DNA from: Escherichia coli
GTDB taxonomy: Bacteria > Pseudomonadota > Gammaproteobacteria > Enterobacterales > Enterobacteriaceae
DNA: 64,000 nucleotides
Strand: one strand, 5' to 3'
Assembly: GCF_001677475.2 (NCBI RefSeq)
Contig: NZ_CP015229.1
A program made the translations under genes and the position numbers. A model generated the notes under the pieces. It was not told the DNA's origin. It did no database searches and saw nothing but the letters and a program-made list of their open reading frames with translations. Positions 8,342 to 51,591 of this stretch are shown in pieces. How positions within the stretch are numbered: position 1 is the stretch's first letter; each line of letters begins with the position of its first letter.

Positions 8342-8353
8342 CTAAAGGTGCAT

Positions 8354-8396: not shown

Positions 8397-8421
8397 GTTA
8401 GTGCTCTAATTTTATGTTTTA

Positions 8422-31377: not shown

Positions 31378-32910
31378 TTATTCCTTCACCTGATGCACAA
31401 CATCGATCACCGAGCCATCGCGGTAACGCACAACGGCAACGACGCGGTCGGTGAATTCAATCGGCTGTGGTTCACCGGTCAGCAGACGCGCACGTTCGCG
31501 CAGCCACTCAATAGAAACCACTTTGATACCTGCTTCCTGCAGACGTTCTGCCAGCTCCGGACGTGCCGGGTTAACAGCGATACCGTGGTCGGTAACCAGG
31601 ATATCGACGCTGGAACCCGGGGTGATGCAGGTCAGCACGTTATCCACCAGAGTCGGAATACGACCGCGTACCAGCGGTGCGACGATGATGGAAAGGGCGG
31701 ATGCAATCGCGGTATCGCAGTGACCGCCGGAAGCGCCACGCAGTACGCCGTCAGAGCCAGTCAGCACGTTGACGTTGAACTGGGTGTCAATTTCCAGCGC
31801 GCTCAGTACCACCACGTCGAGACGATCAACCGATGCACCTTTCGAACCCCAGTTGGCGTACTGGTTGGCGCTGATTTCGATATGATTCGGGTTACGAGCC
31901 AGCGATTGCGCAGCGTGGCTGTCAAAGCTCTGCACATCCAGCAGTTTGCGGATCAGACCTTTTTCGTGCAGGTCAACCATCGTCGCGGTAATACCGCCAA
32001 GGGCGAAGTCGGCGCGAATATCGTGGCTACGCATTTTGTCTTCCAGGAAACGGGTTACCGCCAGCGATGCGCCGCCGGTGCCGGTTTGCATGGAGAAACC
32101 TTCTTTGAAGTAGCCAGAGTTGACAATCACATCCGCAGCGCTACGGGCAATAAGCAGTTCGCGCGGGTTAGTGGTCATACGGGTTGCACCAGCGCCGATT
32201 TTTGCAGCATCGCCAACGCGATCAACTTTGACGATCAGATCAACCTGATCTTGCTCAATGCTTGCCGGATTATGCGGATAAGGCAGCAGTTCTTCGGTAA
32301 GCATCACAACCTGTTTTGCGTTGTCGGCATCAACCATTGCATAGCCGAGGGAGCCGCAGCAGGCTTTACCGGTGTAGCCGTTGGCATTACCGAATTCATC
32401 ACAGGACGGGACGCCGAGGAAAGCCACGTCGATATTCAGTTCGCCGCTCTGTACCAGATGCACACGTCCGCCGTGAGAGTGGATTTGCACCGGTTCCGCC
32501 AGCAGACCACGGGAGATCTCTTCCGCCAGTGGACCGCGCAGGCCGGAGGTATAAATGCGGGTGACCACACCCTGACGAATATGTTCTACCAGCGGTGCAT
32601 GGCAGTCGCTCAAAGAGCTGGACGCCAGGGTCAGGTTTTTAAAGCCCATCTTCGCGATGACGTCCATCACCATATTGACGGTCAGGTCACCGCCACGGAA
32701 AGCGTGGTGGAAGGAGACGGTCATGCCGTCCTTTAAACCAGAACGACGAATAGCGTCTTCCAGGTTGGCGCACAGTTTGCGATCGCGCGCTTTTTCAGCC
32801 TGGTAGGTTTGCTTTGGCGAGTTCTGGAAAGCGGCAAGATCGCATTCAGCGCGACGATTCCAGGCCGCTACCCGTTCTTGTCGTTGAGATTGTTCAATTT
32901 TCTGCGTCAT
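31378..32910 (-). CDS. citF: Citrate lyase alpha subunit
   Basis: Trimmed to ATG at 32910 (MTQKIEQSQR...); 510 aa. Confidence 0.95.
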   Translation of the reverse strand: MTQKIEQSQRQERVAAWNRRAECDLAAFQNSPKQTYQAEKARDRKLCANLEDAIRRSGLKDGMTVSFHHAFRGGDLTVNMVMDVIAKMGFKNLTLASSSLSDCHAPLVEHIRQGVVTRIYTSGLRGPLAEEISRGLLAEPVQIHSHGGRVHLVQSGELNIDVAFLGVPSCDEFGNANGYTGKACCGSLGYAMVDADNAKQVVMLTEELLPYPHNPASIEQDQVDLIVKVDRVGDAAKIGAGATRMTTNPRELLIARSAADVIVNSGYFKEGFSMQTGTGGASLAVTRFLEDKMRSHDIRADFALGGITATMVDLHEKGLIRKLLDVQSFDSHAAQSLARNPNHIEISANQYANWGSKGASVDRLDVVVLSALEIDTQFNVNVLTGSDGVLRGASGGHCDTAIASALSIIVAPLVRGRIPTLVDNVLTCITPGSSVDILVTDHGIAVNPARPELAERLQEAGIKVVSIEWLRERARLLTGEPQPIEFTDRVVAVVRYRDGSVIDVVHQVKE

Positions 32911-32920
32911 TTTGATTGCC

Positions 32921-33829
32921 TTATTCTTCGCGGATGCCGGAAAGTTCTGCGCGGGAGAGCACCAGACGGGCACGATCGATAACCGGACCGTCAACCATCT
33001 TGCCGTTCAGGGAAACCACACCGAGGCCTTCGCGAGCGGCGGCTTCAGCGGCTTCTACGACGCGGCGTGCGTGATCCACTTCTTTCTGGGTTGGTGCGTA
33101 GAGGTTGTGGAGCAGATCAATCTGACGCGGGTTGATCAGCGATTTGCCGTCAAAGCCCAGCTGTTTGATGTGGGCGGCTTCTTGCAGGAATCCGGCTTCG
33201 TTGTTGGCGTCGGAATAGACGGTATCGAACGCCTGGATACCGGCAGAGCGCGCGGCTTGCAAAATGGAGCAGCGAGCGAACAGCAGTTCCGTACCTTCCG
33301 GTGAGCGTTCAGTGCGCAGGTTACGCACGTAGTCTTCCGCGCCCAGCGCGATACCGATTAAACGTTCAGATGCGTGAGCGATTTCTACCGTGCGGGTAAT
33401 ACCCAGCGGAGATTCAATCGCCGCCAGCAGGCCGGTGCTGCCGGGTTCACGACCACAGGCTTTTTCGATACGCAGGATCTCTTTTTCGATATCCAGCACA
33501 TCCTGAGCGGTATCGGTTTTCGGCAGACGCACAACGTCCGCACCACCGCGAACGACGGCTTCCAGGTCGTTAACACCCCATTCGGAATCCAGCGCGTTTA
33601 CACGCACAATGGTTTCAATATCGCGATACAGCGGATGTTGCAGCGCGTGGTAAACCATGCGGCGGGCGGTGTCTTTTTCACGCAATGCTACGGAGTCTTC
33701 GAGGTCAAACATCAGGGCATCAGCCGGGTAGATGAAGGAGTTGCTGACCATCGCGGCATTGGCACCAGGCACAAACAACATGCTGCGGCGGGTGCGAGTT
33801 TTACGTTGTTGCAGCGAAGCGGAAATCAT
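32921..33829 (-). CDS. citE: Citrate lyase beta subunit
   Basis: Trimmed to ATG at 33829 ([10 protein letters not shown]...); 302 aa; 4-nt overlap with citD. Confidence 0.95.
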
Positions 33830-34122
33830 TGGCAATCCTCCCATGGCAGAGCCGGGATACCGCTGGCGCGTGCCAGCAGGGCTTCCAGTCGTGCACGTAA
33901 AATGCAGTCCAGTGCGCCTTTGTCATCGACATTCAGCTGTACGCCGCGCACGTTGTAGCGGGCGAGAACGTCCAGAATGGTGGTGCGAATGGCATCGCCA
34001 AACTGTTTCTCAACGCTGCTGTTGATTTGCAGGTCGATATCCTGCGTATCGAGTGGGGCGATGCGTATCATCACATCCCCAGACTCAAGGGTGCCTGCAA
34101 CGGCGGGCTGGTTTATTTTCAT
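33826..34122 (-). CDS. citD: Citrate lyase acyl carrier protein (gamma subunit)
   Basis: 98 aa. Confidence 0.93.
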
Positions 34123-34136
34123 TTTTCACCTGTTTC

Positions 34137-35195
34137 TCATGCGGGGGTCTTTTGACGAGCTGCCGCGTCCTGGCGGGAGTGCTCAAGCAGGTTCTGCAAA
34201 TAATGCAGCGTGACTGCAGGGACCAGCGGCGCGATAGCCGTGAGATCGTTTTTCGCCAGCAGTTGACGTACCCGGGAAGCGGATATCGGCATCTCCTGGT
34301 AACGCAGCCGCTCAATTTCAACCAGTTCGATGGGCGGTGCGGAGATAGTCGGCGTTTCCAGCCAGTAGCGCATATCCTGGTTGTACTGGGCGGTAACGCG
34401 ACAAAAGGGTTCAGTACCGACAAAGCGGTGAGTTACACCCAGCGCGGGAGCGAGGTACTGACGGAAAATCTTCAGATCAATTTCGGTGTAACAATGGTTA
34501 ATGACGCTCTGTTCTTTAATGAAGTAGCAAGGGAACGTGGCGCGGGAGATGATGTATTCGGAGCCGCGATGCACAGTCAGGCGTGGAATATCGGCGGTGC
34601 CTTTTAACACCAGATCCAGCCGGTCTTCATAGGGGAAGCGTGAAGAATCTTCTTTGACTAAAAACAGATGCAACCAGTCGCACTGTGCTGCAGCCTGTTG
34701 AATCAGATAACGGTGACCATTCGTAAAGGGATTGGCGTTCATCACAATGCAGCCAATCTTATTCCCTGGATGACGAAATTTTTTCAGCGATTCGGCATAG
34801 CGTTTCAGTCGCGTGGCGCTGTTTTCCATCAGCACCATCACGCCGGGTACACTAGTCAGCGTGGAAAAACCGCACTGGCGGAACAGCGCCTCGTATTCGG
34901 TTTTGGTATAAATAAATAGATGCGTGCTGTGCCGCTCATAGGCGAGGTTAATTAGCTCGGTGGCTAATGTCAGCGCCAGTCCTTCACCGCGAACGGATTC
35001 ACTGATAGCAACGCATTTAATAATATTTCCGGCAATTCCACCGCACGCGATAAGCTTTTCATCGCGGGTTACGGTAATAAATACTTCGACTGTGGTGTCA
35101 ACGCTCAAATCATTTTCATGCAGGAATTGGGCGATTTCCGCCATTTTTTTATTTTCTGAACGTTTTACACGGGTGAAAATATCATTGCCGAACAT
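34137..35195 (-). CDS. citC: [Citrate (pro-3S)-lyase] ligase
   Basis: Trimmed to ATG at 35195 (MFGNDIFTRV...); 352 aa; first gene of the cit operon. Confidence 0.9.
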   Translation of the reverse strand: MFGNDIFTRVKRSENKKMAEIAQFLHENDLSVDTTVEVFITVTRDEKLIACGGIAGNIIKCVAISESVRGEGLALTLATELINLAYERHSTHLFIYTKTEYEALFRQCGFSTLTSVPGVMVLMENSATRLKRYAESLKKFRHPGNKIGCIVMNANPFTNGHRYLIQQAAAQCDWLHLFLVKEDSSRFPYEDRLDLVLKGTADIPRLTVHRGSEYIISRATFPCYFIKEQSVINHCYTEIDLKIFRQYLAPALGVTHRFVGTEPFCRVTAQYNQDMRYWLETPTISAPPIELVEIERLRYQEMPISASRVRQLLAKNDLTAIAPLVPAVTLHYLQNLLEHSRQDAAARQKTPA

Positions 35196-35574
35196 AATAA
35201 ATAGTATCCTGAAGGTGCATGTTGTTATCGATTTGCAACAAATGTTGTTCGATGTTGCAAACTGATAACCTTTTATTTTCACTTGGGAGAAAGGGGGGCG
35301 ATCGAGGTATATCTTTTTCTCCTTTCGCTATACATCCTAAGGAGTATTGCAGCGTGAAATTTTGATTTATTTCACATAGAGTTAGTGGTTTTTTATTTAT
35401 TTAATGGTTTTAAGTTTTTTAATTAATGTAATTACGAAATGACCCGCAGGTTTAAGTGATTTAATTGATTTAATGAATAAAATTTGCCACGATTATATTT
35501 AATATCTATGTATTTTGATTCAACATTTTAATTACATTCGTCAAAGAGGCTCGGGACAACCCGCAAGGAAAACA

Positions 35575-37233
35575 ATGTTGCAGCTTAACGAGAATAAACA
35601 GTTTGCATTTTTCCAAAGACTGGCATTTCCGCTGCGTATCTTTTTGCTGATTCTGGTGTTCTCAATATTTGTCATTGCAGCCCTGGCGCAATATTTTACG
35701 GCCAGTTTTGAGGACTATTTAACGCTTCATGTACGCGACATGGCAATGAATCAGGCAAAAATTATTGCTTCTAATGACAGTATCATCAGCGCAGTGAAAA
35801 CGCGTGACTACAAGAGGCTGGCGACCATCGCTGACAAATTACAAAGAGATACTGATTTCGATTATGTGGTGATTGGCGATCGGCACTCGATTCGTCTTTA
35901 CCATCCTAATCCGGAGAAAATTGGTTATCCTATGCAGTTCACCAAACCGGGCGCGCTGGAGAAAGGGGAGAGCTACTTCATCACCGGGAAAGGGTCAATT
36001 GGCATGGCAATGCGTGCCAAAACGCCAATCTTTGATGACGATGGAAAAGTCATCGGCGTGGTGTCGATTGGCTACCTGGTGAGTAAAATCGATAGCTGGC
36101 GTGCTGAGTTTTTATTACCGATGGCAGGTGTGTTTGTCGTGCTGTTAGGGATTCTGATGTTGCTATCGTGGTTCCTGGCCGCGCATATCCGTCGGCAGAT
36201 GATGGGCATGGAGCCAAAGCAAATCGCACGCGTGGTCCGTCAGCAAGAGGCGCTGTTTAGTTCGGTTTATGAAGGGCTGATTGCGGTGGATCCGCACGGT
36301 TACATTACCGCCATCAATCGTAACGCAAGAAAGATGCTGGGGCTGAGTTCCCCTGGACGACAATGGTTGGGTAAACCCATTGCTGAAGTGGTCAGGCCTG
36401 CCGATTTCTTTACCGAACAGATTGATGAAAAACGTCAGGATGTGGTGGCTAACTTTAACGGCCTGAGCGTTATTGCCAATCGGGAAGCTATTCGTTCAGG
36501 TGATGATTTGCTGGGGGCCATTATCAGCTTTCGCAGTAAAGACGAAATTTCCACCCTCAATGCGCAACTGACGCAAATTAAACAATACGTCGAGAGCCTG
36601 CGCACATTGCGACACGAGCATCTCAATTGGATGTCGACGCTCAATGGTCTGTTGCAGATGAAAGAGTATGATCGCGTGCTGGCGATGGTGCAGGGGGAGT
36701 CTCAGGCCCAGCAACAGCTTATTGACAGCCTGCGCGAGGCGTTTGCCGATCGCCAGGTGGCGGGGCTGCTTTTTGGTAAAGTGCAGCGCGCCCGCGAACT
36801 GGGGCTAAAAATGATCATCGTCCCCGGCAGCCAGCTTTCGCAACTGCCGCCAGGACTGGATAGCACCGAGTTTGCCGCCATTGTTGGCAATTTACTTGAT
36901 AACGCCTTCGAAGCCAGCCTGCGTAGCGATGAAGGAAACAAGATCGTTGAATTATTCCTCAGCGATGAAGGCGATGATGTGGTGATTGAAGTCGCCGATC
37001 AGGGCTGCGGCGTTCCAGAGTCTCTACGAGACAAAATATTTGAGCAGGGTGTCAGTACGCGTGCTGACGAGCCCGGCGAACATGGCATTGGGTTGTACTT
37101 GATTGCCAGCTACGTAACGCGCTGCGGTGGTGTTATCACTCTCGAAGATAATGATCCCTGCGGTACCTTATTTTCAATCTATATTCCGAAAGTGAAACCT
37201 AATGACAGCTCCATTAACCCTATTGATCGTTGA
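35575..37233 (+). CDS. dpiB: Sensor histidine kinase (citrate-responsive)
   Basis: Trimmed to ATG at 35575 (MLQLNENKQF...), which has AAGGA upstream; two transmembrane segments; H-box LRHEHLNW; ATPase domain. Confidence 0.9.
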   Translation: MLQLNENKQFAFFQRLAFPLRIFLLILVFSIFVIAALAQYFTASFEDYLTLHVRDMAMNQAKIIASNDSIISAVKTRDYKRLATIADKLQRDTDFDYVVIGDRHSIRLYHPNPEKIGYPMQFTKPGALEKGESYFITGKGSIGMAMRAKTPIFDDDGKVIGVVSIGYLVSKIDSWRAEFLLPMAGVFVVLLGILMLLSWFLAAHIRRQMMGMEPKQIARVVRQQEALFSSVYEGLIAVDPHGYITAINRNARKMLGLSSPGRQWLGKPIAEVVRPADFFTEQIDEKRQDVVANFNGLSVIANREAIRSGDDLLGAIISFRSKDEISTLNAQLTQIKQYVESLRTLRHEHLNWMSTLNGLLQMKEYDRVLAMVQGESQAQQQLIDSLREAFADRQVAGLLFGKVQRARELGLKMIIVPGSQLSQLPPGLDSTEFAAIVGNLLDNAFEASLRSDEGNKIVELFLSDEGDDVVIEVADQGCGVPESLRDKIFEQGVSTRADEPGEHGIGLYLIASYVTRCGGVITLEDNDPCGTLFSIYIPKVKPNDSSINPIDR

Positions 37234-37882
37234 GGACGAAACGCCGCTGGCAGAGATGCATGCGGAATATATTCGTCACATTCCCGGATTCAGTCAGATA
37301 TTACTGGCGGGAAACCTGGCGCAGGCCCGAATGATGATCGAGCGTTTTAAGCCGGGGCTAATCTTGCTCGATAACTATCTTCCTGACGGTAGAGGGATTA
37401 ATTTACTGCATGAACTGGTGCAGGCGCATTTTCCCGGCGACGTGGTGTTTACCACTGCAGCCAGCGATATGGAAACGGTGTCTGAAGCCGTACGTTGTGG
37501 TGTATTTGATTATCTCATTAAGCCCATTGCCTATGAGCGGCTGGGGCAAACGCTAACCCGTTTCCGCCAGCGTAAACATATGCTGGAAAGTATTGATAGC
37601 GCCAGCCAGAAGCAAATTGATGAGATGTTTAATGCCTATGCTCGCGGTGAACCTAAAGACGAACTGCCGACCGGCATTGACCCCTTGACGCTAAACGCGG
37701 TGCGAAAACTGTTTAAAGAGCCTGGTGTGCAACATACGGCAGAAACGGTGGCGCAGGCACTGACCATCAGCCGCACCACTGCCAGGCGTTATCTTGAATA
37801 TTGCGCCAGCCGCCATCTGATTATTGCTGAAATTGTTCACGGCAAAGTTGGCAGACCGCAACGCATATACCACAGTGGGTGA
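37202..37882 (+). CDS. dpiA: Response regulator
   Basis: 226 aa; receiver-domain aspartate context LLDNYLPDG; overlaps dpiB by 32 nt. Confidence 0.93.
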   Translation: MTAPLTLLIVEDETPLAEMHAEYIRHIPGFSQILLAGNLAQARMMIERFKPGLILLDNYLPDGRGINLLHELVQAHFPGDVVFTTAASDMETVSEAVRCGVFDYLIKPIAYERLGQTLTRFRQRKHMLESIDSASQKQIDEMFNAYARGEPKDELPTGIDPLTLNAVRKLFKEPGVQHTAETVAQALTISRTTARRYLEYCASRHLIIAEIVHGKVGRPQRIYHSG

Positions 37883-37885
37883 CAT

Positions 37886-37914
37886 GAAAAAGCCGGAGGA
37901 AACTTGCCTCCGGC
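37886..37914 (-). terminator. Intrinsic terminator of dcuC, in the dpiA/dcuC convergent gap
   Basis: gccggagg-aaacttg-cctccggc hairpin with an A5 run on the plus strand (U-run on the minus strand). Confidence 0.6.
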
Positions 37915-37922
37915 ATGACTAT

Positions 37923-39308
37923 TTACTTGCCTGTGACCACTGCTGCCGTTCCTGGCACCATCAGCTCTGTAGCAACGATAACAATCACTAGCCCAACAAG
38001 CACCGGCACCGAGGTGCGTTTTACGACTTCAAATGGTGAGATTTTCGCCATCCCGGCAACCGCAACGACTACGCCAGAAACGGGTGATAGGGTACGACCC
38101 AGGTTTGACGCCTGCAGCATCGGGATAGTCAAATACGCCGGGTTAATGCCGGAAGAGTGCGCCAGTTTCGGGATCATCTCAACAAACGCATAAAACGGCG
38201 CATTGCCTGAACCGGTCGTGACTGCCGCCAGCATTGTCAGAATCACCAATACCAGCATCAGGATGATACTCGCCGAACCAAACGAGGTAGCAATAGAAAT
38301 CAGACTTTGAATAAAGCCGATGGTGCTAAGCCCCTGAGCGAATACCCCAGCGGCAACCAGCAGCATCACCACGTTAGCAAACGCATCTGCCATCCCGCGA
38401 TAAGCCACTTCCAGACCAGAGAAAACTTTCTGGGTATTAAAGCTGCGGATGAACTCCAGAATGGAGGCAATCAGCATACAAATCACCAGAATAGTGATGA
38501 TGTGTAATTGCGGACCCCATTTGCCGTCAAAAATCAGTACACCGATGATAGGCGTGAACGGCAAAATGGCATAAAACGCAGGAGCAGTGGTGGTGATTTC
38601 ACTGACATCTAACATTTCATGAGAGATGTGCTCTTTTTTATCCAGATAACGTTGCCAGAAGAAGTGGGCGATCGCCATGCCGATAATTGCAGCAATTGAG
38701 ATAGGCAGCGTCGTTTTGAAGGCGAAGTCAATCAGCGACATTTCGGAAGCCTGCGCCGCCAGCACCACATCCCCTGAAGTCGGTGCGAGAATAATCGCCG
38801 CCGGGGAGGCACAAATGGCAGCTGCTGCGCCACGACTGATACCAACGTTTACCATCACCGGAAACAGGGTTGCCATCAGCAAAACACCCAGACCGGTCGC
38901 GGAAGAGACGGCCAGAGACATCAGACAGGCGACAAAATAGGCGGCAATCATCAGCAGGTAAGGGGAGTTAATATACTGCAATGGTTTTGACGCCAGCTTG
39001 ACCACCATATCATTCGCGCCGATATGGGTCATGTAAGCGGCAAAGCCACACAGCATCATAATCATCATGCCGAGGTCGCCGCCGCGGCTCATTAGCAATA
39101 TTTTAACGTATTCAACGATATCCGTGGCGCTGTAGCCTGTTGAAGCCTGGCTGGACGGTAACACTTTGTGCCCCATAATGGCACTGATAATCAGCAATAA
39201 CAGGCCACCGACAAATAACACGCCAGTGGCGGAATACCCTTTAATGATGTAGCGAGCTACACCCACAATAACCACAACCCCAATAAGGAGTTCAATGAAT
39301 GTCAGCAT
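37923..39308 (-). CDS. dcuC: Anaerobic C4-dicarboxylate transporter
   Basis: 461-aa polytopic membrane ORF; uninterrupted. Confidence 0.93.
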   Translation of the reverse strand: MLTFIELLIGVVVIVGVARYIIKGYSATGVLFVGGLLLLIISAIMGHKVLPSSQASTGYSATDIVEYVKILLMSRGGDLGMMIMMLCGFAAYMTHIGANDMVVKLASKPLQYINSPYLLMIAAYFVACLMSLAVSSATGLGVLLMATLFPVMVNVGISRGAAAAICASPAAIILAPTSGDVVLAAQASEMSLIDFAFKTTLPISIAAIIGMAIAHFFWQRYLDKKEHISHEMLDVSEITTTAPAFYAILPFTPIIGVLIFDGKWGPQLHIITILVICMLIASILEFIRSFNTQKVFSGLEVAYRGMADAFANVVMLLVAAGVFAQGLSTIGFIQSLISIATSFGSASIILMLVLVILTMLAAVTTGSGNAPFYAFVEMIPKLAHSSGINPAYLTIPMLQASNLGRTLSPVSGVVVAVAGMAKISPFEVVKRTSVPVLVGLVIVIVATELMVPGTAAVVTGK

Positions 39309-39896
39309 AATTTTTCCTGTCTCCAGGCCCCAAAGTAAATAATAAAAAATTCCTAAAACTTAAGGAAAAAATATGCCCAATAAATTGGCGATGAATGCTG
39401 ATTAAAATCAAGAAAAACTGCCATTAACACATTGAAGTTACTGTTTTTATACATAGATAACAAAACACATATTTAGCGGTTGGTAATTATCACATAATAA
39501 TGTGTGTAAATTGATGGCGGATTGATGCAAATTTGTTAATAGCAATGGTGTTAGCTGCGATTGCGTGCTCAAAAAATAATCTGTAATGAGCATGGGTTGA
39601 CGATATATAATATATTTTTCGTTAAGATTCTTTTTGTATGTTGTTAAAAAATAAAGTAATTTTATCCTGGTTGTATTTTGTTATCAGAACCGACTTGCTT
39701 TTTATTTAATGACTATTCCCATCACAGAAAACGAAGTATCATCTTAAATCGATGCGCGGAAATATTTAACTTGAACAAGCGGAAATAAATAGAGCAGCTA
39801 TTCAGATTATTCTTTATATTGGGGCTATTAAGGTTATGTTAATTGTAGCTTTGCTATGCTAGTAGTAGATTTTTGATAAATGTTTTATGGTCACAA

Positions 39897-40457
39897 ATGA
39901 ACGTGAGTAAGTATGTCGCTATCTTTTCCTTTGTTTTTATTCAGTTAATCAGCGTTGGTAAAGTTTTTGCTAACGCAGATGAGTGGATGACAACGTTTGG
40001 AGAAAATATTACACAAACCTGGCAACAGCCTGAACATTATGATTTATATATTCCTGCCATCACCTGGCATGCTCGTTTCGCTTACGACAAAGAAAAAACC
40101 GATCGCTATAACGAGCGACCGTGGGGTGGCGGTTTTGGTCAGTCGCGATGGGATGAAAAAGGAAACTGGCATGGCCTGTATGCCATGGCATTTAAGGACT
40201 CGTGGAACAAATGGGAACCGATTGCCGGATACGGATGGGAAAGTACCTGGCGACCGCTGGCGGATGAAAATTTTCATTTAGGACTGGGATTCACCGCTGG
40301 CGTAACGGCACGCGATAACTGGAATTACATCCCTCTCCCGGTTCTACTGCCATTGGCCTCTGTGGGTTATGGTCCAGTGACTTTTCAGATGACCTACATT
40401 CCGGGTACCTATAACAATGGCAATGTGTACTTTGCCTGGATGCGCTTTCAGTTTTGA
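39897..40457 (+). CDS. pagP: Lipid A palmitoyltransferase (outer-membrane beta-barrel)
   Basis: ORF-track TTG start trimmed to ATG at 39897 ([10 protein letters not shown]...); 186 aa. Confidence 0.9.
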
Positions 40458-40631
40458 GACAAATGAAATTTTAGTAAACTCTTTAAAATCAATGGGTAAA
40501 ATAATTAACATCAAAAATAACGCGACTTTTATCACTTTTTAGTAAAGTTGCACTGGACAAAGCGTACCACAATTGGTGTACTGGTAACCGACACAGCATT
40601 TGTGTCTATTTTTCATGTAAAGGTAATTTTG

Positions 40632-40841
40632 ATGTCTAAGATTAAAGGTAACGTTAAGTGGTTTAATGAGTCCAAAGGATTCGGTTTCATTACTCCGGAA
40701 GACGGCAGCAAAGACGTGTTCGTACACTTCTCTGCAATCCAGACTAATGGTTTTAAAACTCTTGCTGAAGGTCAGCGCGTAGAGTTCGAAATCACTAACG
40801 GTGCCAAAGGCCCTTCTGCTGCAAACGTAATCGCTCTGTAA
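40632..40841 (+). CDS. cspE: Cold-shock-domain protein
   Basis: 69 aa; RNP1 motif KGFGFI. Confidence 0.97.
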
Positions 40842-40860
40842 GATACGTCAGCAAGAATTC

Positions 40861-40889
40861 AAAACCCGCTTAATCAGCGGGTTTTTTTT
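40861..40889. terminator. Bidirectional intrinsic terminator between cspE and crcB
   Basis: aaacccgct-taatc-agcgggttt hairpin flanked by an A-run and a T8 run. Confidence 0.7.
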
Positions 40890-40894
40890 GGTCT

Positions 40895-41278
40895 TTAGTG
40901 TGCGGTTGAGGCTGAAAACAGCCAGAATGCCAGTGCGGTCATGGCAAAAGAGCCCAGAAGGTTGACGAAAACGTTCAGTAATGCCCAGCCAAAGCGACCC
41001 TCTTGTAACAAAAACACCACTTCTGCCGAAAATGTTGAGAAGGTTGTTAGACCGCCACAAAATCCGGTGGTGATTAATACTTTCCACACTGGATCAATGT
41101 TCGTCATCCTGCTGAACCAGGCGAATCCCATTCCTATGATGAATGCCCCAATCAGGTTTGCTGTCAGCGTCCCCAACGGAATCGCCTGATGCAGTGGGTT
41201 AAATCGCATACTTAACAGCCATCTCGCCACGCTTCCCGTACCACCGCCAATAAAAACTGCTAAAAGAAGTTGTAACAC
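40895..41278 (-). CDS. crcB: Fluoride channel
   Basis: 127-aa small membrane protein with four hydrophobic segments. Confidence 0.93.
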
Positions 41279-41370
41279 TGCAAAATCCTGCTATTTGATT
41301 TGTATGAGTGATAAGTGTAACGCCGAATAATCGTCGTTGGCGAATTTTACGACTCTGACAGGAGGTGGCA

Positions 41371-42159
41371 ATGCTGGTTGCTGCAGGACAGTTTGCTGTT
41401 ACATCTGTGTGGGAAAAGAACGCTGAGATTTGTGCCTCGTTGATGGCGCAGGCGGTGGAAAACGACGTATCGCTGTTTGTCCTGCCGGAAGCATTGCTGG
41501 CGCGCGATGATCATGATGCAGATCTATCGGTTAAATCAGCACAGCTGCTGGAAGGCGAATTCCTCGGACGTTTACGGCGAGAAAGTAAACGTAACATGAT
41601 GACGACAATTCTGACGATTCATGTTCCTTCAACGCCGGGGCGCGCATGGAATATGCTGGTGGCACTTCAGGCAGGAAACATCGTCGCCCGTTATGCCAAA
41701 CTGCATCTCTATGATGCATTTGCCATTCAGGAATCACGTCATGTTGATGCTGGTAATGAAATAGCTCCGTTACTGGAGGTGGAAGGGATGAAGGTCGGTC
41801 TGATGACCTGTTATGACTTACGCTTTCCAGAGCTGGCGCTGGCACAGGCATTACAGGGAGCTGAAATCCTGGTAGTTCCTGCCGCCTGGGTTCGTGGGCC
41901 GCTCAAAGAGCATCACTGGTCAACGTTGCTTGCCGCTCGTGCGCTGGATACCACCTGTTATATGGTGGCGGCGGGGGAGTGCGGGAACAAAAATATCGGG
42001 CAAAGCCGAATTATAGATCCCTTTGGCGTCACGATTGCGGCAGCGTCAGAAATGCCTGCACTCATTATGGCGGAAGTGACGCCCGAACGTGTGCGTCAGG
42101 TGCGCGCGCAACTGCCCGTCTTAAACAACCGTCGCTTTGCGCCGCCGCAATTATTATGA
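41371..42159 (+). CDS. ybeM: Nitrilase-superfamily (C-N hydrolase) protein, intact reading frame
   Basis: 262 aa from the ATG, with GGAGG 5 nt upstream. Catalytic triad contexts present: Glu (VLPEAL), Lys (YAKLHLYD), Cys ([10 protein letters not shown]). Confidence 0.85.
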
Positions 42160-42287
42160 TGTTTTTTTACTCGGCGCTTGATTCACCTTGTTACAGATTG
42201 CTATTGTGTGCGCGCGTCGAATGACCGTTAATATTCTCTGGTTTTTAAGGCGCGTTCTGTTGCCGGTTATATGTCAAGAAGGTATCT

Positions 42288-42491
42288 ATGGGTGAGATTA
42301 GTATTACCAAACTGCTGGTAGTTGCGGCGCTGGTCGTTCTGCTGTTTGGGACTAAGAAGTTACGTACGCTGGGCGGAGACCTTGGAGCGGCCATTAAAGG
42401 GTTCAAGAAGGCGATGAATGATGACGATGCTGCGGCGAAAAAAGGCGCAGACGTTGATCTTCAGGCTGAAAAGCTCTCTCATAAAGAGTGA
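42288..42491 (+). CDS. tatE: Twin-arginine translocase subunit (TatA paralog)
   Basis: 67 aa; single transmembrane helix followed by an amphipathic segment. Confidence 0.95.
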
Positions 42492-42531
42492 CGTGGCGAG
42501 CAGGACGCTCCCTCAATATCTTGTTCGATAC

Positions 42532-42563
42532 AAAAAAACCCGCTTCAAAAAGCGGGTTTTTTA
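42532..42563. terminator. Bidirectional intrinsic terminator between tatE and lipA
   Basis: aaacccgctt-caaaa-agcgggttt hairpin flanked by an A7 run and a T6 run. Confidence 0.7.
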
Positions 42564-42592
42564 TCAGACAGATGTAAGTAATTATTACAGGA

Positions 42593-43558
42593 TTACTTAA
42601 CTTCCATCCCTTTCGCCTGCAAATCGGCGTGGTAAGACGAGCGGACAAACGGACCGCATGCAGCATGGGTAAAGCCCATCGCCAGCGCTTCGGCTTTCAT
42701 TTCGTCGAACTCATCCGGGCTAACGTAACGTTGAACCGGCAGGTGATGGCGGCTTGGCTGCAAATATTGCCCCAGCGTTAGCATCGTCACACCATGACGG
42801 CGCAGGTCGCGCATTACCTCAATAATTTCTTCATTGGTTTCACCCAGACCCACCATCAGACCAGACTTGGTCGGGATTTCCGGATGCGCTTCTTTAAAGC
42901 GTTCCAGCAGCTTCAGCGACCAGTTGTAATCTGCACCAGGCCGTACCTGACGGTAAATACGCGGTACGTTTTCCAGGTTATGGTTGAACACATCTGGTGG
43001 TGTGGCGGTCAGAATATCCAGAGCACGATCCATACGACCGCGGAAATCCGGCACCAGAGTTTCAATTTTGATTTGCGGGCTTTTTTCCCGAATGGCAGTA
43101 ATGCAATCCGCAAAGTGTTGGGCACCGCCATCGCGCAGGTCATCACGGTCAACGGAGGTGATAACCACATAACGCAGCGCCATATCGGCAATGGTCTGCG
43201 CCAGTTTCACTGGTTCATTGGCATCCGGAGCTACCGGGCGACCGTGGGCAACGTCACAGAACGGACAACGGCGGGTACAAATAGCGCCGAGGATCATAAA
43301 CGTTGCTGTGCCGTGGTTGAAGCATTCCGCCAGGTTAGGGCAGGAGGCTTCCTCGCAGACAGAATGCAGGCCATTTTTGCGCATTGCGGCTTTGATGCCC
43401 TGGATACGTGTAGAGTCCGCTGGAAGCTTGATTTTCATCCATTCCGGCTTGCGCAGCAGGGCTTCGCGCTCTGTTGCCACGTTTTTAACCGGGATAAGGG
43501 CCATCTTATCGGCATCGCGGTATTTAACACCGCGTTCCATCACAATGGGTTTACTCAT
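42593..43558 (-). CDS. lipA: Lipoyl synthase (radical SAM)
   Basis: 321 aa; radical-SAM CTRRCPFC and auxiliary cluster [12 protein letters not shown]. Confidence 0.97.
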
Positions 43559-43766
43559 AGCGTGCGTGTTCCAGTTGCGAATTACGAAGGAAAGCGTTTC
43601 AATTCAATAGATTGTTGTAATTATCAACTATTTTTGAATTAACGACTGGCAGTATATCATTGAAACGGACCTGAAAGCAGCCAAAGCGGTCGCGAAAATG
43701 TAAAATTGTTGTTGGATTGTGCCATTTTTTCGCTCTTCGCTGTGATCTGGCTGTAACAATACTTTT

Positions 43767-44720
43767 TCAAAATGCATTACGGATAACATCTATTACCCCG
43801 TGCAGGATGGGATCACGCAGGCTGAATTTGTTGTAGTGGATAGAGAAATCTATTTGCTCCTCATTTAAGGACGGAAAAGGCAGTTTTTCTAGCGGCCAAC
43901 AACGGCTAAACAGGTTATAAAAACGGCTGGGAATAATCGCTAACATGTCACTGTTGGCAACCAGTGCAGCGATTGTCAAAATGTTGTAGCTGGTGAAACT
44001 GATTTGCCGGTCCGGAAACATCTCTTGAACTCTCTGCCGCAGACCGCTGAAATTTTGCCCTTCCGGTAACAGGAGTATATGCGCAGCGTTGTCGATAGTC
44101 TCCCTGTCATCTTCTAAAGAGAGTAGTGGATTTCCCTCACGGCAAATTAACACCATATTGTCGGTGAACAGAACATGATGTTGCACCGTACGATTGGTGC
44201 AAAACATGTTATCGATGATGAGATCGGTTTGAAACTGACTGAGTTGGTTTTCCGCGTCGCTGATGGGCGGGTTGCGCAGTAAAAGCTGCGGATAGTGAGT
44301 TTTAATCGCCCGATAGATGACAGGAAGGACCAGGGCTCCGACCGAGGGGGTGGTCGCAATAGTTATCGTTCGTTGCTTATCATAGCTTCCTTCGATATCC
44401 AGCGCGCCAAGAATGGACTCAAGGCCCTGACTGATATACTCATGTAGATGCATCGCAAATGCGGTAGGAGTGACACCCTGGCCTTTGCGAATAAACAATG
44501 GGTCAGGGAATATAACGCGCAGTTTCTGAATAGACTGACTGATTGCCGAGGGTGTCAGATTAAGCACTTTCGCTGCATTAACGATCCCTTTATGTACATA
44601 TACAGCTTCAAAAATAGTCAGAAGGTTAAGATCAATATTTCGTAAGGTTGTAAATATTTGTGGTTTACCTTCTGACGACTTTCTGCTTAAACAGGTTTCA
44701 ATTTGATTATTACTATCCAC
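43767..44720 (-). CDS. ybeF: LysR-family transcriptional regulator
   Basis: 317 aa; N-terminal helix-turn-helix (VNAAKVLNLTPSAISQSIQKLR). Confidence 0.88.
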   Translation of the reverse strand: MDSNNQIETCLSRKSSEGKPQIFTTLRNIDLNLLTIFEAVYVHKGIVNAAKVLNLTPSAISQSIQKLRVIFPDPLFIRKGQGVTPTAFAMHLHEYISQGLESILGALDIEGSYDKQRTITIATTPSVGALVLPVIYRAIKTHYPQLLLRNPPISDAENQLSQFQTDLIIDNMFCTNRTVQHHVLFTDNMVLICREGNPLLSLEDDRETIDNAAHILLLPEGQNFSGLRQRVQEMFPDRQISFTSYNILTIAALVANSDMLAIIPSRFYNLFSRCWPLEKLPFPSLNEEQIDFSIHYNKFSLRDPILHGVIDVIRNAF

Positions 44721-44979
44721 GCACTTACTCCAATTTTATTCATGGAAAAATAATATTTAAAAAAATTACAATAATCTTATGTCTAATTGGAACGGAACGC
44801 TTTTGCTCACCATAATCAACTATTTCAATAAGTTAATCAATGGGGTGAGTTACGGAGCAAGGCGTAGCATCGCATTTCTGCAAGTGATAAAGAAAATATA
44901 CAAACGCGAAGGAGATGTAAAGCATTAGCGGGTATTATGAGTAATGACCCAGTGTAAATTGGGCCATTGAGGTATGCAA

Positions 44980-45621
44980 TTAAGCGGTAATATATTCGAA
45001 GTCAGGATTGTTTAGTAGCGCTAAAATATTTTCCAGTAAACGTGGTGCAATATTATTAGTCGTCGCTTCGGGTTTCCATTGTGATATTTTAGCCATTTCC
45101 ATTCCGGCATACCCACAAGGATTAATACGTAAAAATGGTGAAAGATCCATATTGACGTTTAATGCCAGACCGTGGAATGAACAACCGCGTCGAATACGTA
45201 AACCCAGTGAGCAAATTTTCTTTTCCCCGACATAGACACCAGGCGCGTCAGCCCGAGGATGCGCTTCTATACCCAGTTCAGCCAGGGTATTCACCACTGT
45301 TTGCTCAAGCAAGGTCACCAGTTCACGCACACCGAGTTTACGGCGTTTCAGGTTAAGCAACACATACATCACCTGTTGCCCCGGCCCGTGATAAGTCACC
45401 TGCCCACCGCGATCGCTCTGAATCACCGGAATATCACCCGGCATTAAAATGTGCTCCGCTTTTCCTGCCTGCCCTTGAGTGAATACCGGATAGTGCTCGA
45501 CCAGCCAGATTTCATCAAGGGTACTTTCATCGCGGGTATCGGTGAATTCATGCATAGCCTGGGAGATTGGCTCGTAAGGCTGAAGACCGAGCTGGCGGAC
45601 AAGAATTTTATCCTGATACAA
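44980..45621 (-). CDS. lipB: Octanoyltransferase (lipoate-protein ligase B)
   Basis: 213 aa; conserved position between ybeD and ybeF/lipA. Confidence 0.93.
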
Positions 45622-45721
45622 AACGGCATCTCCGTGGAGAATGAGTAAAAGTGGGGGAAAAGTATATCACAGCGAGGAGAGGGGAGTTACCCGACCAGGA
45701 GCCGGGTAACGGAGAAGCGAG

Positions 45722-45985
45722 TTACAGAACCATGCGGACAATATCGATTTTGCCCAGTTCTTCATACAGTGTTTCAACCTGCTCGATATGAGTCGCGTTG
45801 ATAGTGATAGATACCGAGTGGTAGTTGCCTTTGCTGCTTGGTTTTACCGTTGGGGTGTAGTCACCTGGCGCATGGCGCTGTACCACTTCAACCACCTGAT
45901 CAACCAGCTCAGGTAACGCCTGCCCCATAACTTTGTAAGTAAAAGGAGTAGGGAATTCAAGCAGTTCGTTAAGTTTGGTTTTCAT
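45722..45985 (-). CDS. ybeD: UPF0250 family small protein
   Basis: 87 aa; between dacA and lipB. Confidence 0.93.
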
Positions 45986-46094
45986 GTCAGCTCCGGCGTA
46001 ACGTAATTAAATAGCAACTCCCGCCAGAAGGCGGGAGTTTTTTACTGATGCTTAGTATATGGGGACGGAAATTACACTTTCAAGTGTTCAATTT

Positions 46095-47306
46095 TTAACC
46101 AAACCAGTGATGGAACATTAATTTAATGTAATCAATGATTTTGCCGAAGAAGTTACCTTCCGGGATTTCTTGCAACACAACCAGCGGGCGTTGCTCGATC
46201 GTTTTGCCATCAAGCTGGAAGTTGATAGTTCCGACGACCTGATTCTTTTGCAGCGGCGCATGCAATTCACTGCTGTTCAGCACATAGCTGGCTTTCAGAT
46301 CTTTCATGCGACCACGCGGAATGGTCAGGTACACGTCTTTATCAACCCCTAACGAAGCGCGATCAGAATCACCAAACCAAACCGGTTCAGAGGCGAACTC
46401 TTTACCTACTTTCAGTGGGTTAACGGTTTCGAAGAAACGGAAGCCCCAGGTCAGCAGTTTTTTACTTTCGGCTTCACGGCCTTTAAAAGTACGTCCGCCC
46501 ATCACCGCAGAGATCAAGCGCATCTGGCCTTCAGTCGCAGAAGCAACAAGGTTGTAACCTGCTTTGTCAGTGTGTCCGGTTTTGATGCCGTCGACATTCA
46601 GGCTGTTATCCCATAACAGACCGTTACGGTTCAGCTGGCGAATACCGTTAAACGTAAATTCTTTTTCTTTATAGATCGAGTATTCATTTGGTACGTCACG
46701 GATCAACGCCTGGCCGATCAGCGCCATATCGCGCGCGGAGCTGTACTGACCATCAGCATCCAGACCATGTACCGTCTGGAAGTGGGTATTTTTCAGGCCC
46801 AGGGCGTTAACGTAGCTGTTCATCAAGCCAACAAAAGCGTCCTGGCTACCAGCGGCAAAATCGGCCATGGCGACGCAAGCATCGTTACCCGATTGCAGGT
46901 TAATACCGCGGATCAGCTGAGAAACCGGAACCTGCATGCCCGGTTTGAGGAACATCAGCGAAGAACCTTTAAACACCGGGTTACCGGTGGCCCATGCGTC
47001 GTTGCCGATAGTGACTAAATCAGTTTCTTTAAATTTACCGGCTTTCATTGCCTGGCCGATAACGTAACTGGTCATCATTTTGGTCAGGCTGGCAGGATCG
47101 CGGCGGACATCTGCGTTCTGTTCGGCGAGCACTTTGCCGGAGTTATAGTCAATCAGGATGTAGGACTCCGCGTCGATCTGCGGTACACCCGGGATCATAG
47201 TTTTGATATTCAGGTCATCGGCATGTGCAGCAGAGATAAAGGCTGTGCAAAGAGCCGTGGTGAGCGCCAGGCGCTTCATGATACGAGCGGAAAAAATGGT
47301 ATTCAT
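46095..47306 (-). CDS. dacA: D-alanyl-D-alanine carboxypeptidase (PBP5)
   Basis: 403 aa; signal peptide; SLTK, SGN and KTG motifs. Confidence 0.96.
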
Positions 47307-47445
47307 GGTCTGAACTACGACATCCGTGATGGAATTAAAAAAAGTGCCCTACTATAGCAAATGCACTACCGGCAGGCATCTGACTTTCCGCGTGACTTTG
47401 TTAACGTCATTTACAGAAATTGACACATCAGATGCCTGCTTTACG

Positions 47446-48534
47446 CTACTGCGCGGTGGTAATAAATGACTGTAATTGGGCTTCGGTTTGCAAACGTTGC
47501 TGCAAGGTACTGGCTTCGGCTTTGCTGGCGAATGGGCCAAGCTGGATCCGCCAGACCGCGCCATTTTGAGTTACGCGACCGGGGACGCCGAACTTCTGTC
47601 CCAGTTGCTGTTGGTACTGTTGCGCACGCGCCTGATCGCTTACGGCCCCAACTTGCACCATAAAGTTGCCGCTGGCGCTTTGCGAGGCGGCTTGCGGTGT
47701 CACCATTGCAGGCGAGGTTGCAGGCGTTGTCGACGGAGCTGTAACAACGGGCTGTGGCGCAGGTGTTGGTTCGCTGCCTTCCAGAACACCAGGCGCTAAG
47801 GTCGTTGGTGCACCGAGGAAACCGCTGCTGGTTACCGGCGCGCCGGTCGGATCTTCGCTTTTTAGCGTCGAATTACTGACCGGAAGAATGTCACCCTGCG
47901 GGCCAGACACTGAACTTGTTCCCGCGCCACCGCTTAAATCGGGAGGTGCAGGCAGGGCATAAGTCTGTTTAGCAACTGTGGTACAGGCCATACCAGGACC
48001 AGAAAGCGAACCATCCTGGGCGACAATAATCGGATCGATACGAACTTTGGTGTTGTTTGACGTGTTAAGACGGTCAGCTGCCGCGCGAGAAAGCGAAATA
48101 ACGCGGTCGTTGCCGTAAGGACCGCGATCATTAATGCGCACCACGATCATTCGCCCGTTAGCCAGGTTAGTGATTCTGGCGTAGCTGGGGATCGGAAGCG
48201 TTGGATGGGCCGCCGTCAACTGTGTCGGATCGAATGCTTCGCCAGAGGCCGTCAGGTTACTGCCGGGTTCGGCATCATAGATTGCCGCCAGTCCCGCCAG
48301 GCTAAATCGAGACGGATCCTGTACGATTTTGTAGCTTTTACCGTCGCGCTGGTAATCCTGGTTTGCCGTCGCGTTCAGTGGTTCGAAACGCGGGTCCGCC
48401 CCGCTAATTTCAACTATGGGGCCGTTACATACCGCAGGCTGCGGTACACTTACCGTCTGTTGCTGACCATCATCGCTTGTACATGCCGCGAGCATTCCTG
48501 CCGCGATGCAGATCCCGAGCCACTGCTTACGCAT
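47446..48534 (-). CDS. rlpA: Septal ring lytic transglycosylase RlpA (rare lipoprotein A)
   Basis: 362 aa; lipobox LAAC; Pro/Thr/Ala-rich linker; C-terminal SPOR-like region. Confidence 0.93.
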   Translation of the reverse strand: MRKQWLGICIAAGMLAACTSDDGQQQTVSVPQPAVCNGPIVEISGADPRFEPLNATANQDYQRDGKSYKIVQDPSRFSLAGLAAIYDAEPGSNLTASGEAFDPTQLTAAHPTLPIPSYARITNLANGRMIVVRINDRGPYGNDRVISLSRAAADRLNTSNNTKVRIDPIIVAQDGSLSGPGMACTTVAKQTYALPAPPDLSGGAGTSSVSGPQGDILPVSNSTLKSEDPTGAPVTSSGFLGAPTTLAPGVLEGSEPTPAPQPVVTAPSTTPATSPAMVTPQAASQSASGNFMVQVGAVSDQARAQQYQQQLGQKFGVPGRVTQNGAVWRIQLGPFASKAEASTLQQRLQTEAQLQSFITTAQ

Positions 48535-48544
48535 TGCGCACCTC

Positions 48545-49657
48545 TTACACGCTTTTCGACAACATTTTCCTGTGGGTGTGGATTGACATTACAATCCCGA
48601 ACCCAGCCATCAGCACAATAAGCGCCGATCCTCCATAACTGACCAGTGGGAGCGGAACCCCTACAACCGGCAGAATACCGCTTACCATACCAATATTTAC
48701 GAAGACATAAACGAATAATATCAGCATTAAGCCGCCAGCCATGACGCGACCAAAGGTGGTTTGCGCTCTGGCGGCTATCCACAGCCCGCGCATGATCAGC
48801 AGAATGTAAAGAGCGAGCAGAATCAAAATGCCCACTAATCCCAGCTCTTCCGCCAGTACCGCGAAGATAAAGTCGGTATGGCGTTCGGGGAGAAATTCAA
48901 GCTGTGACTGAGTGCCATGCAGCCAGCCTTTGCCGCGTAATCCGCCGGAGCCAATAGCAATTTTAGACTGAATAATGTGATAGCCCGCGCCGAGTGGGTC
49001 TGATTCCGGGTCCAGGAGCATCATTACGCGCTGGCGCTGGTAATCATGCATCAGGAAGAACCACAGAATAGGAATGAACGCCGCCACCAGCACTACTGCG
49101 ACGCCAATCAGACGCCAGCTAAGGCCAGAGAGGAACAGTACAAACAGACCGGAAAGCGCAACGAGGATTGATGTCCCCAGGTCAGGCTGCGCAGCCACCA
49201 GCAGCGTGGGCATAAATATCAGCACCAGCGCGATGCCTGTGTTCTTCAACGACGGCGGGCAAACGTCGCGGTTGATAAAGCGCGCAACCATCAGTGGTAC
49301 GGCTATTTTGGCAATTTCCGACGGCTGAAAACGAACAATACCGAGGTCCAGCCAGCGTTGAGCGCCTTTAGAGATGGCACCGAAAGCATCTACCGCCACC
49401 AGCAAAATAATACAGATGATATAGAGATAGGGGGCCCAGCCTTCATAAACGCGTGGAGGAATTTGCGCCATCACCACCATGATGACCAGACCCATCGCGA
49501 TTTGGCCTATTTTACGCTCCATCATGCCAATATCCTGACCGCTGGCGCTCCAGATAACCAGGGCGCTGTAAACCAGCAATGCCAGTAAAATCAGCAGCAT
49601 TGTGGGATCGAGATGGACTTTATCCCAGAATGTTTTTTTATTCGGATTATCCGTCAT
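48545..49657 (-). CDS. mrdB: Peptidoglycan glycosyltransferase RodA (SEDS family)
   Basis: 370-aa polytopic membrane ORF immediately downstream of mrdA. Confidence 0.96.
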
Positions 49658-49659
49658 GA

Positions 49660-51561
49660 TTAATGGTCCTCCGCTGCGGCAACCGCTGGATTTTCCGCAG
49701 GCAGATCGGTGTTGTTATCACCCAGCATAATGTGGTCGAGGATCTGGCGCATCAGCGTACCAACCGCTGGACCCGCGCCACCGTTCTCCAGAATCATGGC
49801 GACAGCCACTTGCGGATTGTTGTATGGCGCAAAGGCAGTCATCAGTTTGTGGTCACGTAAACGCTCGGCAATTTTGTGCGCATTATAGGTTTCGTTCGCT
49901 TTCAGACCGAAGACCTGAGCTGTACCAGATTTCGCCGCAATTTTGTACGGTGCGCTGGCAAAGTATTTATGCGCCGTACCGTTAGGGCGGTTAGCAACAC
50001 CGTACATACCGTCTTTCGCCAGCTCCCAGTAACCGGAATGAATATCGCCGACGGGTGGTTCATGCGGTTGTACCCATGGCACCTGTTTGCCGTCTTCGGC
50101 GGTGCTCATCAGCAAATGCGGAACCTTCACGATACCGTCATTAATCAGGATCATCAGTGCCTTACTCATCTGGATTGGGGTCGCTGTCCAGTAACCCTGG
50201 CCGATACCAACCGGAATGGTGTCACCCTGATACCACGGTTTTTTAAAGCGTTTCTGTTTCCATTCGCGGGTAGGCATGTTGCCGGAACGTTCTTCCGCCA
50301 GGTCGATACCGGTATAATGACCATAACCGAATTTACCCATCCATTCGGAGAGGCGATCGATCCCCATATCGTAGGCCACCTGATAGAAGAAGGTATCCGC
50401 AGATTCTTCCAGCGATCTTGTGACATTCAGACGCCCGTGGCCCCATTTTTTCCAGTCACGATAACGTTTTTCCGAACCTGGCAGTTGCCACCAGCCTGGG
50501 TCAAACAGCGTCGTATTGCGCGTGATCACCCCGGCGCTTAATGCCGAAACCGCCACATAGGGTTTAACTGTAGACGCGGGAGGATAAACCCCCTGTGTGG
50601 CGCGGTTCACCAGCGGTGTATTCGGGTCGTTCAGCAAGGCGGAATAATCTTTGCTGGAGATACCGTCAACAAATAGGTTTGGGTCATAACTAGGCGTGGA
50701 AACCAGCGCCAGCACCCCACCTGTACGCGGATCGGTGACTACCACAGCTGCGCGGCTACCCGCCAGCAGCGTTTCAATATATTGCTGGAGTTTGAGATCC
50801 AGCGTCAGGTAAATATCGTGTCCGGCTTGCGGTGGCACTTCTTTTAACTGGCGGATAACACGCCCACGGTTGTTAACTTCAACCTCTTCATAACCAGTCT
50901 GACCGTGCAGCACGTCTTCATAGTAACGCTCAATGCCCAGCTTACCTATATCATGCGTTGCCGCATAGTTGGCCAGTTTGCCGTCATTATTCAGGCGTTC
51001 GACGTCTTTATCGTTGATTTTCGACACATAGCCGATGACGTGGGTCAACGCCGAACCGTAAGGATAGTAACGACGTTTATAGCCTTTAACTTCAACACCC
51101 GGAAAACGGTACTGATTGACGGCAAAGCGAGCTACTTGTACTTCGGTCAGGTTAGTTTTCACCGGAATGGAGGTGAAACGGTGTGAACGTGCGCGCTCTT
51201 TTCGGAATGCAGCAATATCGTCATCGGTCAGATCAACCACGCTGCGCAAAGCGTCCAGCGTTTGCTGCACGTTATCGACTTTCTCCGGCATCATCTCTAT
51301 CTGGTAGATAGTGCGGTTAAGTGCCAGAGGGATACCGTTACGGTCGTAGATAATGCCGCGGCTGGGCGCGATAGGCACCAGCTTAATGCGGTTTTCATTA
51401 GAGCGGGTCTGGTAATCGGTAAAGCGAACAATTTGCAGATTATACAGGTTGGCGATAAGCACGCCGGTCAGCAGCAAAATCCCCAAAAAGGCGACCAGCG
51501 CCCGGCGCACAAACAGCGCGGACTCTGCCGTATAGTCGCGAAAAGAGTTCTGTAGTTTCAT
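49660..51561 (-). CDS. mrdA: Penicillin-binding protein 2 (elongasome transpeptidase)
   Basis: 633 aa; STVK and KSGT motifs. Confidence 0.96.
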
Positions 51562-51591
51562 CCGCTGCGTTTTCTACTCAAAGCTCCCTTA

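Follow-up and report, generated by a model that had tools for sequence, protein, structure and literature searches.

An intact ybeM allele of Escherichia coli, probably encoding a Nit1-type deaminated glutathione amidase, and the single-nucleotide deletion that interrupts the gene in K-12

Results

We investigated the ybeM locus in a 64,000-nucleotide stretch of an Escherichia coli genome (contig NZ_CP015229.1; hereafter, the window). The coding sequence lies at 41371..42159 on the plus strand and comprises 789 nt, that is, 262 sense codons followed by TGA, with no internal stop. This agrees with an earlier sequence-only reading of the same DNA, which had described an uninterrupted open reading frame (ORF) of 262 codons. 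Judging from the ORF itself, its matches to Pfam PF00795 and NCBIfam NF033621, and an identical NCBI protein, the product is probably a Nit1-type deaminated glutathione amidase. A Shine–Dalgarno sequence, AGGAGG, was read at 41360..41365 (plus strand), separated by the 5-nt spacer TGGCA from the ATG at 41371; the GGAGG that the sequence-only reading had placed 5 nt before the ATG is part of it. An alternative GTG start occurs at 41365, two codons 5' of the ATG. Because this GTG overlaps the Shine–Dalgarno sequence, the ATG at 41371 is the plausible start, and RefSeq records of homologous ybeM genes begin at the position equivalent to the ATG, not the GTG.

Upstream, ybeM is flanked by the divergent gene crcB, encoding a fluoride channel (40895..41278, minus strand; identified from its ORF and from annotation in homologous records). 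crcB is conserved context of ybeM and is no functional part of the enzyme. Downstream, tatE (42288..42491, plus strand; identified from its ORF, annotation, and synteny) follows on the same strand, 128 nt past the ybeM stop. When positions 40800-42600 were scanned for promoters and terminators, the counts were not above those in shuffled sequence, and no sigma-70-like promoter beyond chance was found upstream of ybeM on the plus strand.

The YbeM protein matched the Pfam CN_hydrolase profile (PF00795) with 141.8 bits against a gathering score of 23.2 (E = 3.3e-41), and the match paired residues 3-245 with positions 2-255 of the 256 profile positions. A match of this significance, running end to end, indicates that ybeM is no chance ORF. 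In a HMMER alignment with Caenorhabditis elegans NitFhit (PDB 1EMS), Glu40, Lys110, Glu121, and Cys147 of YbeM corresponded to Glu54, Lys127, Glu143, and Cys169, respectively. We take Glu54, Lys127, and Cys169 of 1EMS to be the catalytic triad and Glu143 to complete the tetrad of the superfamily. In the window, all four codons are on the plus strand: catalytic Glu40 (GAA, 41488..41490) lies in the motif VLPEAL, which starts at residue 37; catalytic Lys110 (AAA, 41698..41700) lies in YAKLHLYD, which starts at residue 108; the second catalytic glutamate, Glu121 (GAA, 41731..41733), lies in IQES; and the nucleophile Cys147 (TGT, 41809..41811) lies in a motif that starts at residue 145. None of the four residues varied across 106 aligned homologues with 70-100% identity. 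The sequence-only reading had recognized the contexts of the Glu, Lys, and Cys triad; all three are retained as it stated, with Glu121 in addition.

The AlphaFold model of YbeM (pTM 0.84, mean pLDDT 79.8) is an alpha-beta-beta-alpha sandwich, which Foldseek aligned to yeast Nit2, mouse Nit2, and NitFhit with TM-scores of 0.80-0.84 (E ~1e-21). Near the active site, residues 115-123 and 174-193 were modelled with low confidence. Thus, by profile, catalytic tetrad, and fold, YbeM is a member of the nitrilase (C-N hydrolase) superfamily.

The annotation of K-12 MG1655 (NC_000913.3) lists a 788-nt pseudogene, ybeM (b4581), between crcB and tatE, which bears out what the sequence-only reading had stated about this strain. 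Alignment to the K-12 locus, which that reading had proposed as a check, showed that the K-12 copy is neither identical nor intact. In a three-way DNA alignment, the only indel within ybeM between the window and K-12 was a 1-nt loss in K-12, namely that of G 41570, the middle base of codon 67 (CGT, Arg; 41569..41571, plus strand), and the allele counts given below refer to this base. A stop codon consequently ends the K-12 product at 75 residues, short of Lys110, Glu121, and Cys147. Besides the indel, the two copies differ by 12 substitutions over 789 nt; reinsertion of the G into K-12 ybeM gives a protein of 262 aa with 5 residue differences from that of the window.

We found ybeM in 5424 of the 5426 complete E. 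coli genomes. An 80-mer centred on the deletion, used as a probe for the K-12 allele, had an exact match in 859 of the 5424 genomes, a number inflated by K-12 laboratory derivatives, and none in the remaining 4565; the exact 81-mer of the window allele was present in 3533. These counts are exact probe matches and not reading frames, and genomes matching neither probe presumably carry nearby substitutions. Approximately half of the first 60 of the 859 matches were K-12 laboratory derivatives; the others among these 60 were isolates from humans, dogs, chickens, cattle, water, and food. One of these isolates, strain 300709 from human stool, has a ybeM with the K-12-type frameshift that PGAP labels "deaminated glutathione amidase, frameshifted". 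Since natural isolates carry the frameshift as well, it is a polymorphism at the level of a clade rather than an artefact of K-12 in the laboratory.

The order of events may be read from strain 300709. Its ybeM (locus L004, 1342-2129) has the frameshift of K-12 yet keeps Val33 and Val37, whereas the K-12 copy (locus L001, 2532-3319) has the changes V33A and V37A; Val37 is otherwise invariant (105 of 106 homologues). This suggests that the frameshift came first and that the amino-acid changes gathered after ybeM had been inactivated. The window gene, then, is the ordinary intact allele and the broken K-12 copy is the exception, most complete genomes being free of the K-12 lesion. With 4565 of 5424 genomes lacking the deletion allele and 3533 sharing the window 81-mer exactly, intactness does not have the notability that the sequence-only reading had implied. 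There is a small chance that the interesting object is instead the polymorphism, in the form of one ancient 1-nt deletion fixed in a clade to which K-12 and many natural isolates of human, animal, and environmental origin belong.

Two sets of candidates were rejected in the course of this survey. The first was recurrent inactivation of ybeM, for which the candidates were truncated or fused protein clusters (P0055, 215 aa; P0060, 214 aa; P0073, 205 aa; P0128; and P0032; the size of a homologue cluster is its number of members at 90% identity, not of alleles). On the contigs behind P0055 and on one of the two behind P0060, the neighbouring gene pagP or lipA is split as well, indicating that these contigs are laden with indel errors. 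The two P0060 contigs each measure less than 4 kb, and the truncated P0073 protein ends at a contig end. The second was the single divergent E. coli hit, in strain UTME-9 (84.5% identity; NZ_CP157110.1), considered as a distant allele for the dN/dS analysis. We set it aside as a poor assembly because every gene around its ybeM is annotated as frameshifted: dcuC, pagP, crcB, tatE, and lipA are all frameshifted or split in NZ_CP157110.1. In GCA_020556205.1 and GCA_020555935.1, pagP and lipA are frameshifted or split near ybeM. Indel-error-laden assemblies such as these three are a source of falsely truncated ybeM entries in protein databases.

Beyond ybeM, the whole window (1-64000) is colinear with K-12 positions 615,210-680,659, from entF to djlC, at 96.2-97.7% identity. 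The best of the 5,426 complete RefSeq E. coli genomes reached just 98.7% over window positions 32000-52000, from which it follows that the lineage of this strain is poorly represented among complete genomes. At window positions 26560-26835, K-12 ybdR (encoding a putative Zn-dependent alcohol dehydrogenase; 642,088-643,326 in K-12) is absent, and the uspG-rnk interval has 276 nt in the window in place of 1,611 nt in K-12. A divergent yldA-like ORF for a small hydrophobic protein of 29 aa lies at 26665-26754 on the minus strand (MSEALGITAFYIFIAAIIVAAVLYLEQRW; K-12 YldA, MAEAFYILIGFLIMAAIIVMAVLYLENHS). In the reverse of the ybeM case, ybeR (DUF1266; window 60053-60759) is frameshifted in the window: the T-run at 60164-60168 has 5 T versus 6 in K-12, the frame stops after 59 codons, and the remainder continues in another frame. 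An 81-mer across the ybeR frameshift had 0 exact matches among the complete RefSeq E. coli genomes, so that the frameshift is either private to the lineage or a homopolymer sequencing error. In the window strain and K-12, short GC-rich palindromic repeat units (CCCCTCACCCTAACCCTCTCCCCAAAGGGGCGAGGGG) occupy different spacers. The entS-fepB spacer of the window contains a 90-nt unmatched stretch (8341-8430; ~86 nt net) with one palindromic unit, and the fepB-entC spacer (window ~9415) is without the ~183 nt, including two palindromic units, that K-12 has there.

An intact ybeM might still be effectively non-functional or decaying, through poor expression or through crippling effects of its substitutions, with its loss being cost-free; in view of the evidence below, we consider this very unlikely. 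The window protein is identical at 259 of the 262 positions to the intact protein of BL21(DE3) (WP_000959109.1), from which it differs by A29V, R124H, and L169V. That residue 169 is Leu in 102 of the 106 homologues counts in favour of a crippling effect, but L169V is conservative and is seen in other homologues also. Positions 29 and 124 are both variable among the homologues, and His124 is found in 10 of them. We infer that the window variant (V29, H124, V169 relative to BL21) is active. Its exact protein, moreover, occurs on 34 contigs, which also speaks against decay.

Conservation between genera points in the same direction. Homologues that bear the name deaminated glutathione amidase are spread across the Enterobacteriaceae; those in E. 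fergusonii, Citrobacter, Salmonella, Leclercia, Enterobacter, and Kosakonia have 71-83% identity and a constant length of 262 aa. Salmonella, E. fergusonii, and C. sedlakii all preserve the order crcB-ybeM-tatE-lipA. The dN/dS of window ybeM versus that of Salmonella, Citrobacter, and E. fergusonii, in all of which the tetrad is conserved, was 0.06-0.11 (Nei-Gojobori), the ratios being approximate because dS is near saturation. By this estimate, ybeM is under purifying selection, and both the intergeneric ratios and the unchanged length argue against a decaying ORF.

The rate of divergence and the frequency of loss, conversely, count in favour of decay. The identity between the window and Salmonella proteins was 72% for ybeM, versus 91% for crcB, 87% for tatE, and 97% for lipA. 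Because ybeM diverges faster than its neighbours, selection on it is comparatively weak. The E. fergusonii ybeM protein is 82% identical to that of the window, and crcB, tatE, and lipA show 87-99% across the Salmonella, E. fergusonii, and Citrobacter loci; the E. fergusonii gene is as distant from E. coli as that of Citrobacter is, which could mean weak constraint or old allele exchange. In addition, ybeM is dispensable in a sizeable clade, as the frameshift in 859 complete genomes, natural isolates included, attests.

Published expression data bear on the question from both sides. In the uropathogenic E. coli (UPEC) strain CFT073, ybeM is transcribed, with NO stress down-regulating it 0.30-fold, and both CFT073 and K-12 show an NsrR ChIP peak within the gene, ~345 bp in (PMC5320621). 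This transcription and the strong Shine–Dalgarno sequence count against a silent gene, whereas a ybeM translational reporter in Salmonella gave very weak expression (bioRxiv 2020.09.09.289983) and our scan found no promoter-like site upstream. In strain UTI89, the full ybeM ORF had no effect on cell division, and overexpression of short out-of-frame ybeM sub-fragments, in either orientation, led to a division block and filamentation (PMC6206680). An amidase function explains neither the NsrR peak within ybeM nor the division block by its sub-fragments. Overall, the tetrad invariant in 106 homologues, the dN/dS of 0.06-0.11, and the 99% identity to the BL21(DE3) protein indicate that the window gene is very probably functional, in line with the "probably functional" of the sequence-only reading.

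We investigated the identity of the enzyme with function-specific profiles. The NCBIfam model NF033621, "deaminated glutathione amidase" (de_GSH_amidase), matched YbeM over its full length (YbeM 3-261; model 2-260 of 260) with 449.7 bits against a cut-off of 355. YbeM was under the cut-off for every NCBIfam equivalog other than NF033621; the YafV-type model NF007757 gave 61.4 bits, below its cut-off of 249, and the Yersinia equivalog for deaminated glutathione (dGSH) amidase gave 85 versus a cut-off of 500. NCBI and UniRef already list a 262-aa protein identical to that of the window, with the name deaminated glutathione amidase.

Comparison with solved structures gave a consistent, if less decisive, picture. 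By sequence score against YbeM, the Nit1 orthologues NitFhit (1EMS, 104.5 bits) and yeast Nit2 (4H5U, 98.4 bits) ranked above the omega-amidases mouse Nit2 (80.2 bits) and yeast Nit3 (75.0 bits), although the margin is modest. The best Foldseek matches of the model were Kluyveromyces lactis Nit2 (7ELF) and yeast Nit2, including 4HGD, which is yeast Nit2 with an endogenous peptide-like ligand (TM-scores 0.80-0.84). Our attempt to separate Nit1 from Nit2 by fold failed: Foldseek ranked the Nit1 orthologues first, but the TM-scores were equal, those to mouse Nit2 and yeast Nit3 being 0.83 and 0.81. With mouse Nit2 equally close, the fold confirms the superfamily and cannot part Nit1 from Nit2. 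The literature pairs YbeM with Nit1 and YafV with Nit2, the omega-amidase (PMC8788347); PMC8711792, citing Peracchi et al. 2017, gives YafV as the 2-oxoglutaramate amidase.

Taken together, the window ORF is in all likelihood a normal functional ybeM allele, its predicted product being a Nit1-type dGSH amidase (EC 3.5.1.128) with a role in metabolite repair. The gene, the product name, the reaction, and the pseudogene status in K-12 are all in public annotation already. The "unknown substrate" of the sequence-only reading is outdated, given that NF033621 is passed, that the identical protein is so named in NCBI and UniRef, and that the literature equates YbeM with Nit1. Since dGSH is an N-substituted 2-oxoglutaramate, however, the 2-oxoglutaramate-type amides which that reading had suggested for assay were close to the mark.

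Discussion

The substrate of Nit1 is the alpha-keto analogue of glutathione, a product of unspecific transamination of glutathione, which Nit1 hydrolyses with release of 2-oxoglutarate and Cys-Gly (PMC10452834, PMC5714238). Because its substrate arises in this unspecific manner, Nit1 is regarded as a repair enzyme. In E. coli, aminotransferases would now and then act on the free alpha-amino group of glutathione, a transamination that gives dGSH, i.e., N-(4-oxoglutaryl)-L-cysteinylglycine, and YbeM would cleave the amide bond of dGSH to release 2-oxoglutarate and Cys-Gly. By analogy with the established chemistry of the nitrilase superfamily, Cys147, activated by Glu40 as the general base, would attack the amide carbonyl; Lys110 would stabilize the tetrahedral intermediate, and Glu121 would position the substrate and water. 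Cys-Gly would then depart, leaving a thioester acyl-enzyme to be hydrolysed.

YbeM could also be active with a physiological substrate in enterobacteria other than dGSH, such as another N-substituted 2-oxoglutaramate or a damaged gamma-glutamyl compound (deaminated glutathionylspermidine or a gamma-glutamyl peptide). We regard this as most unlikely. Its identity to the eukaryotic Nit1 orthologues is ~28-30%, and the loops of the substrate pocket are modelled with low confidence, both of which would leave room for a different specificity. The score of 85 against the cut-off of 500 for the Yersinia equivalog can be read in the same way; with YbeM so far below that cut-off, bacterial dGSH amidases appear to be heterogeneous. 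Nevertheless, YbeM passes the curated model that names the function (NF033621), nothing positive favours another substrate, and E. coli makes millimolar glutathione. We infer that dGSH is the physiological substrate, a view that rests on the 2017 work of Peracchi et al., in which E. coli proteins were reportedly assayed directly, including the E. coli enzyme on dGSH.

The sequence-only reading had raised an omega-amidase-like hydrolase. An omega-amidase of the Nit2/YafV type, with 2-oxoglutaramate and 2-oxosuccinamate as the main substrates, is favoured by the shared nitrilase branch and tetrad, the TM-scores to mouse Nit2 and yeast Nit3, the significant sequence matches, and the weak omega-amidase activity that Nit1 enzymes keep, but YbeM misses the NF007757 cut-off by far while passing the dGSH-amidase model, and Nit1 orthologues outscore Nit2 and Nit3 in the sequence search, making it extremely unlikely. 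Moreover, the omega-amidase role in E. coli is given to the paralogue YafV (PMC8788347, PMC8711792).

K-12 is an unrepresentative reference at ybeM. If YbeM is a dGSH amidase, as we favour, metabolic models and knockout collections based on K-12 would be without dGSH repair, whereas BL21 has an intact ybeM. For studies of the metabolite repair of glutathione, the clade with the frameshift could provide a natural control. If it is true that the loss is tolerated or favoured, E. coli supplies natural knock-outs of glutathione-damage repair, and these would allow a direct test of the fitness cost of dGSH accumulation in bacteria.

The closest known counterpart of the window protein is that of BL21(DE3), with which it has in common the locus, the length of 262 aa, the start, the tetrad, and the crcB-ybeM-tatE context, apart from the three substitutions described above. 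The eukaryotic Nit1 orthologues, namely mammalian Nit1, yeast Nit2 (4H5U and 4HGD), and NitFhit (1EMS), have the same fold and the same E-K-E-C tetrad as YbeM and the same assigned reaction, and they provide the top sequence and structure matches among solved structures. YbeM differs from them in sequence (~28-30% identity) and in being shorter, with 262 aa versus ~290-330 aa, and, unlike these orthologues, it has neither a Fhit fusion nor a targeting peptide. YafV, mammalian Nit2, and yeast Nit3 share with YbeM the superfamily branch, the fold, and the catalytic residues; these omega-amidases, however, act on unsubstituted 2-oxoglutaramate, whereas enzymes of the Nit1 type act on the Cys-Gly-substituted amide (PMC10452834).
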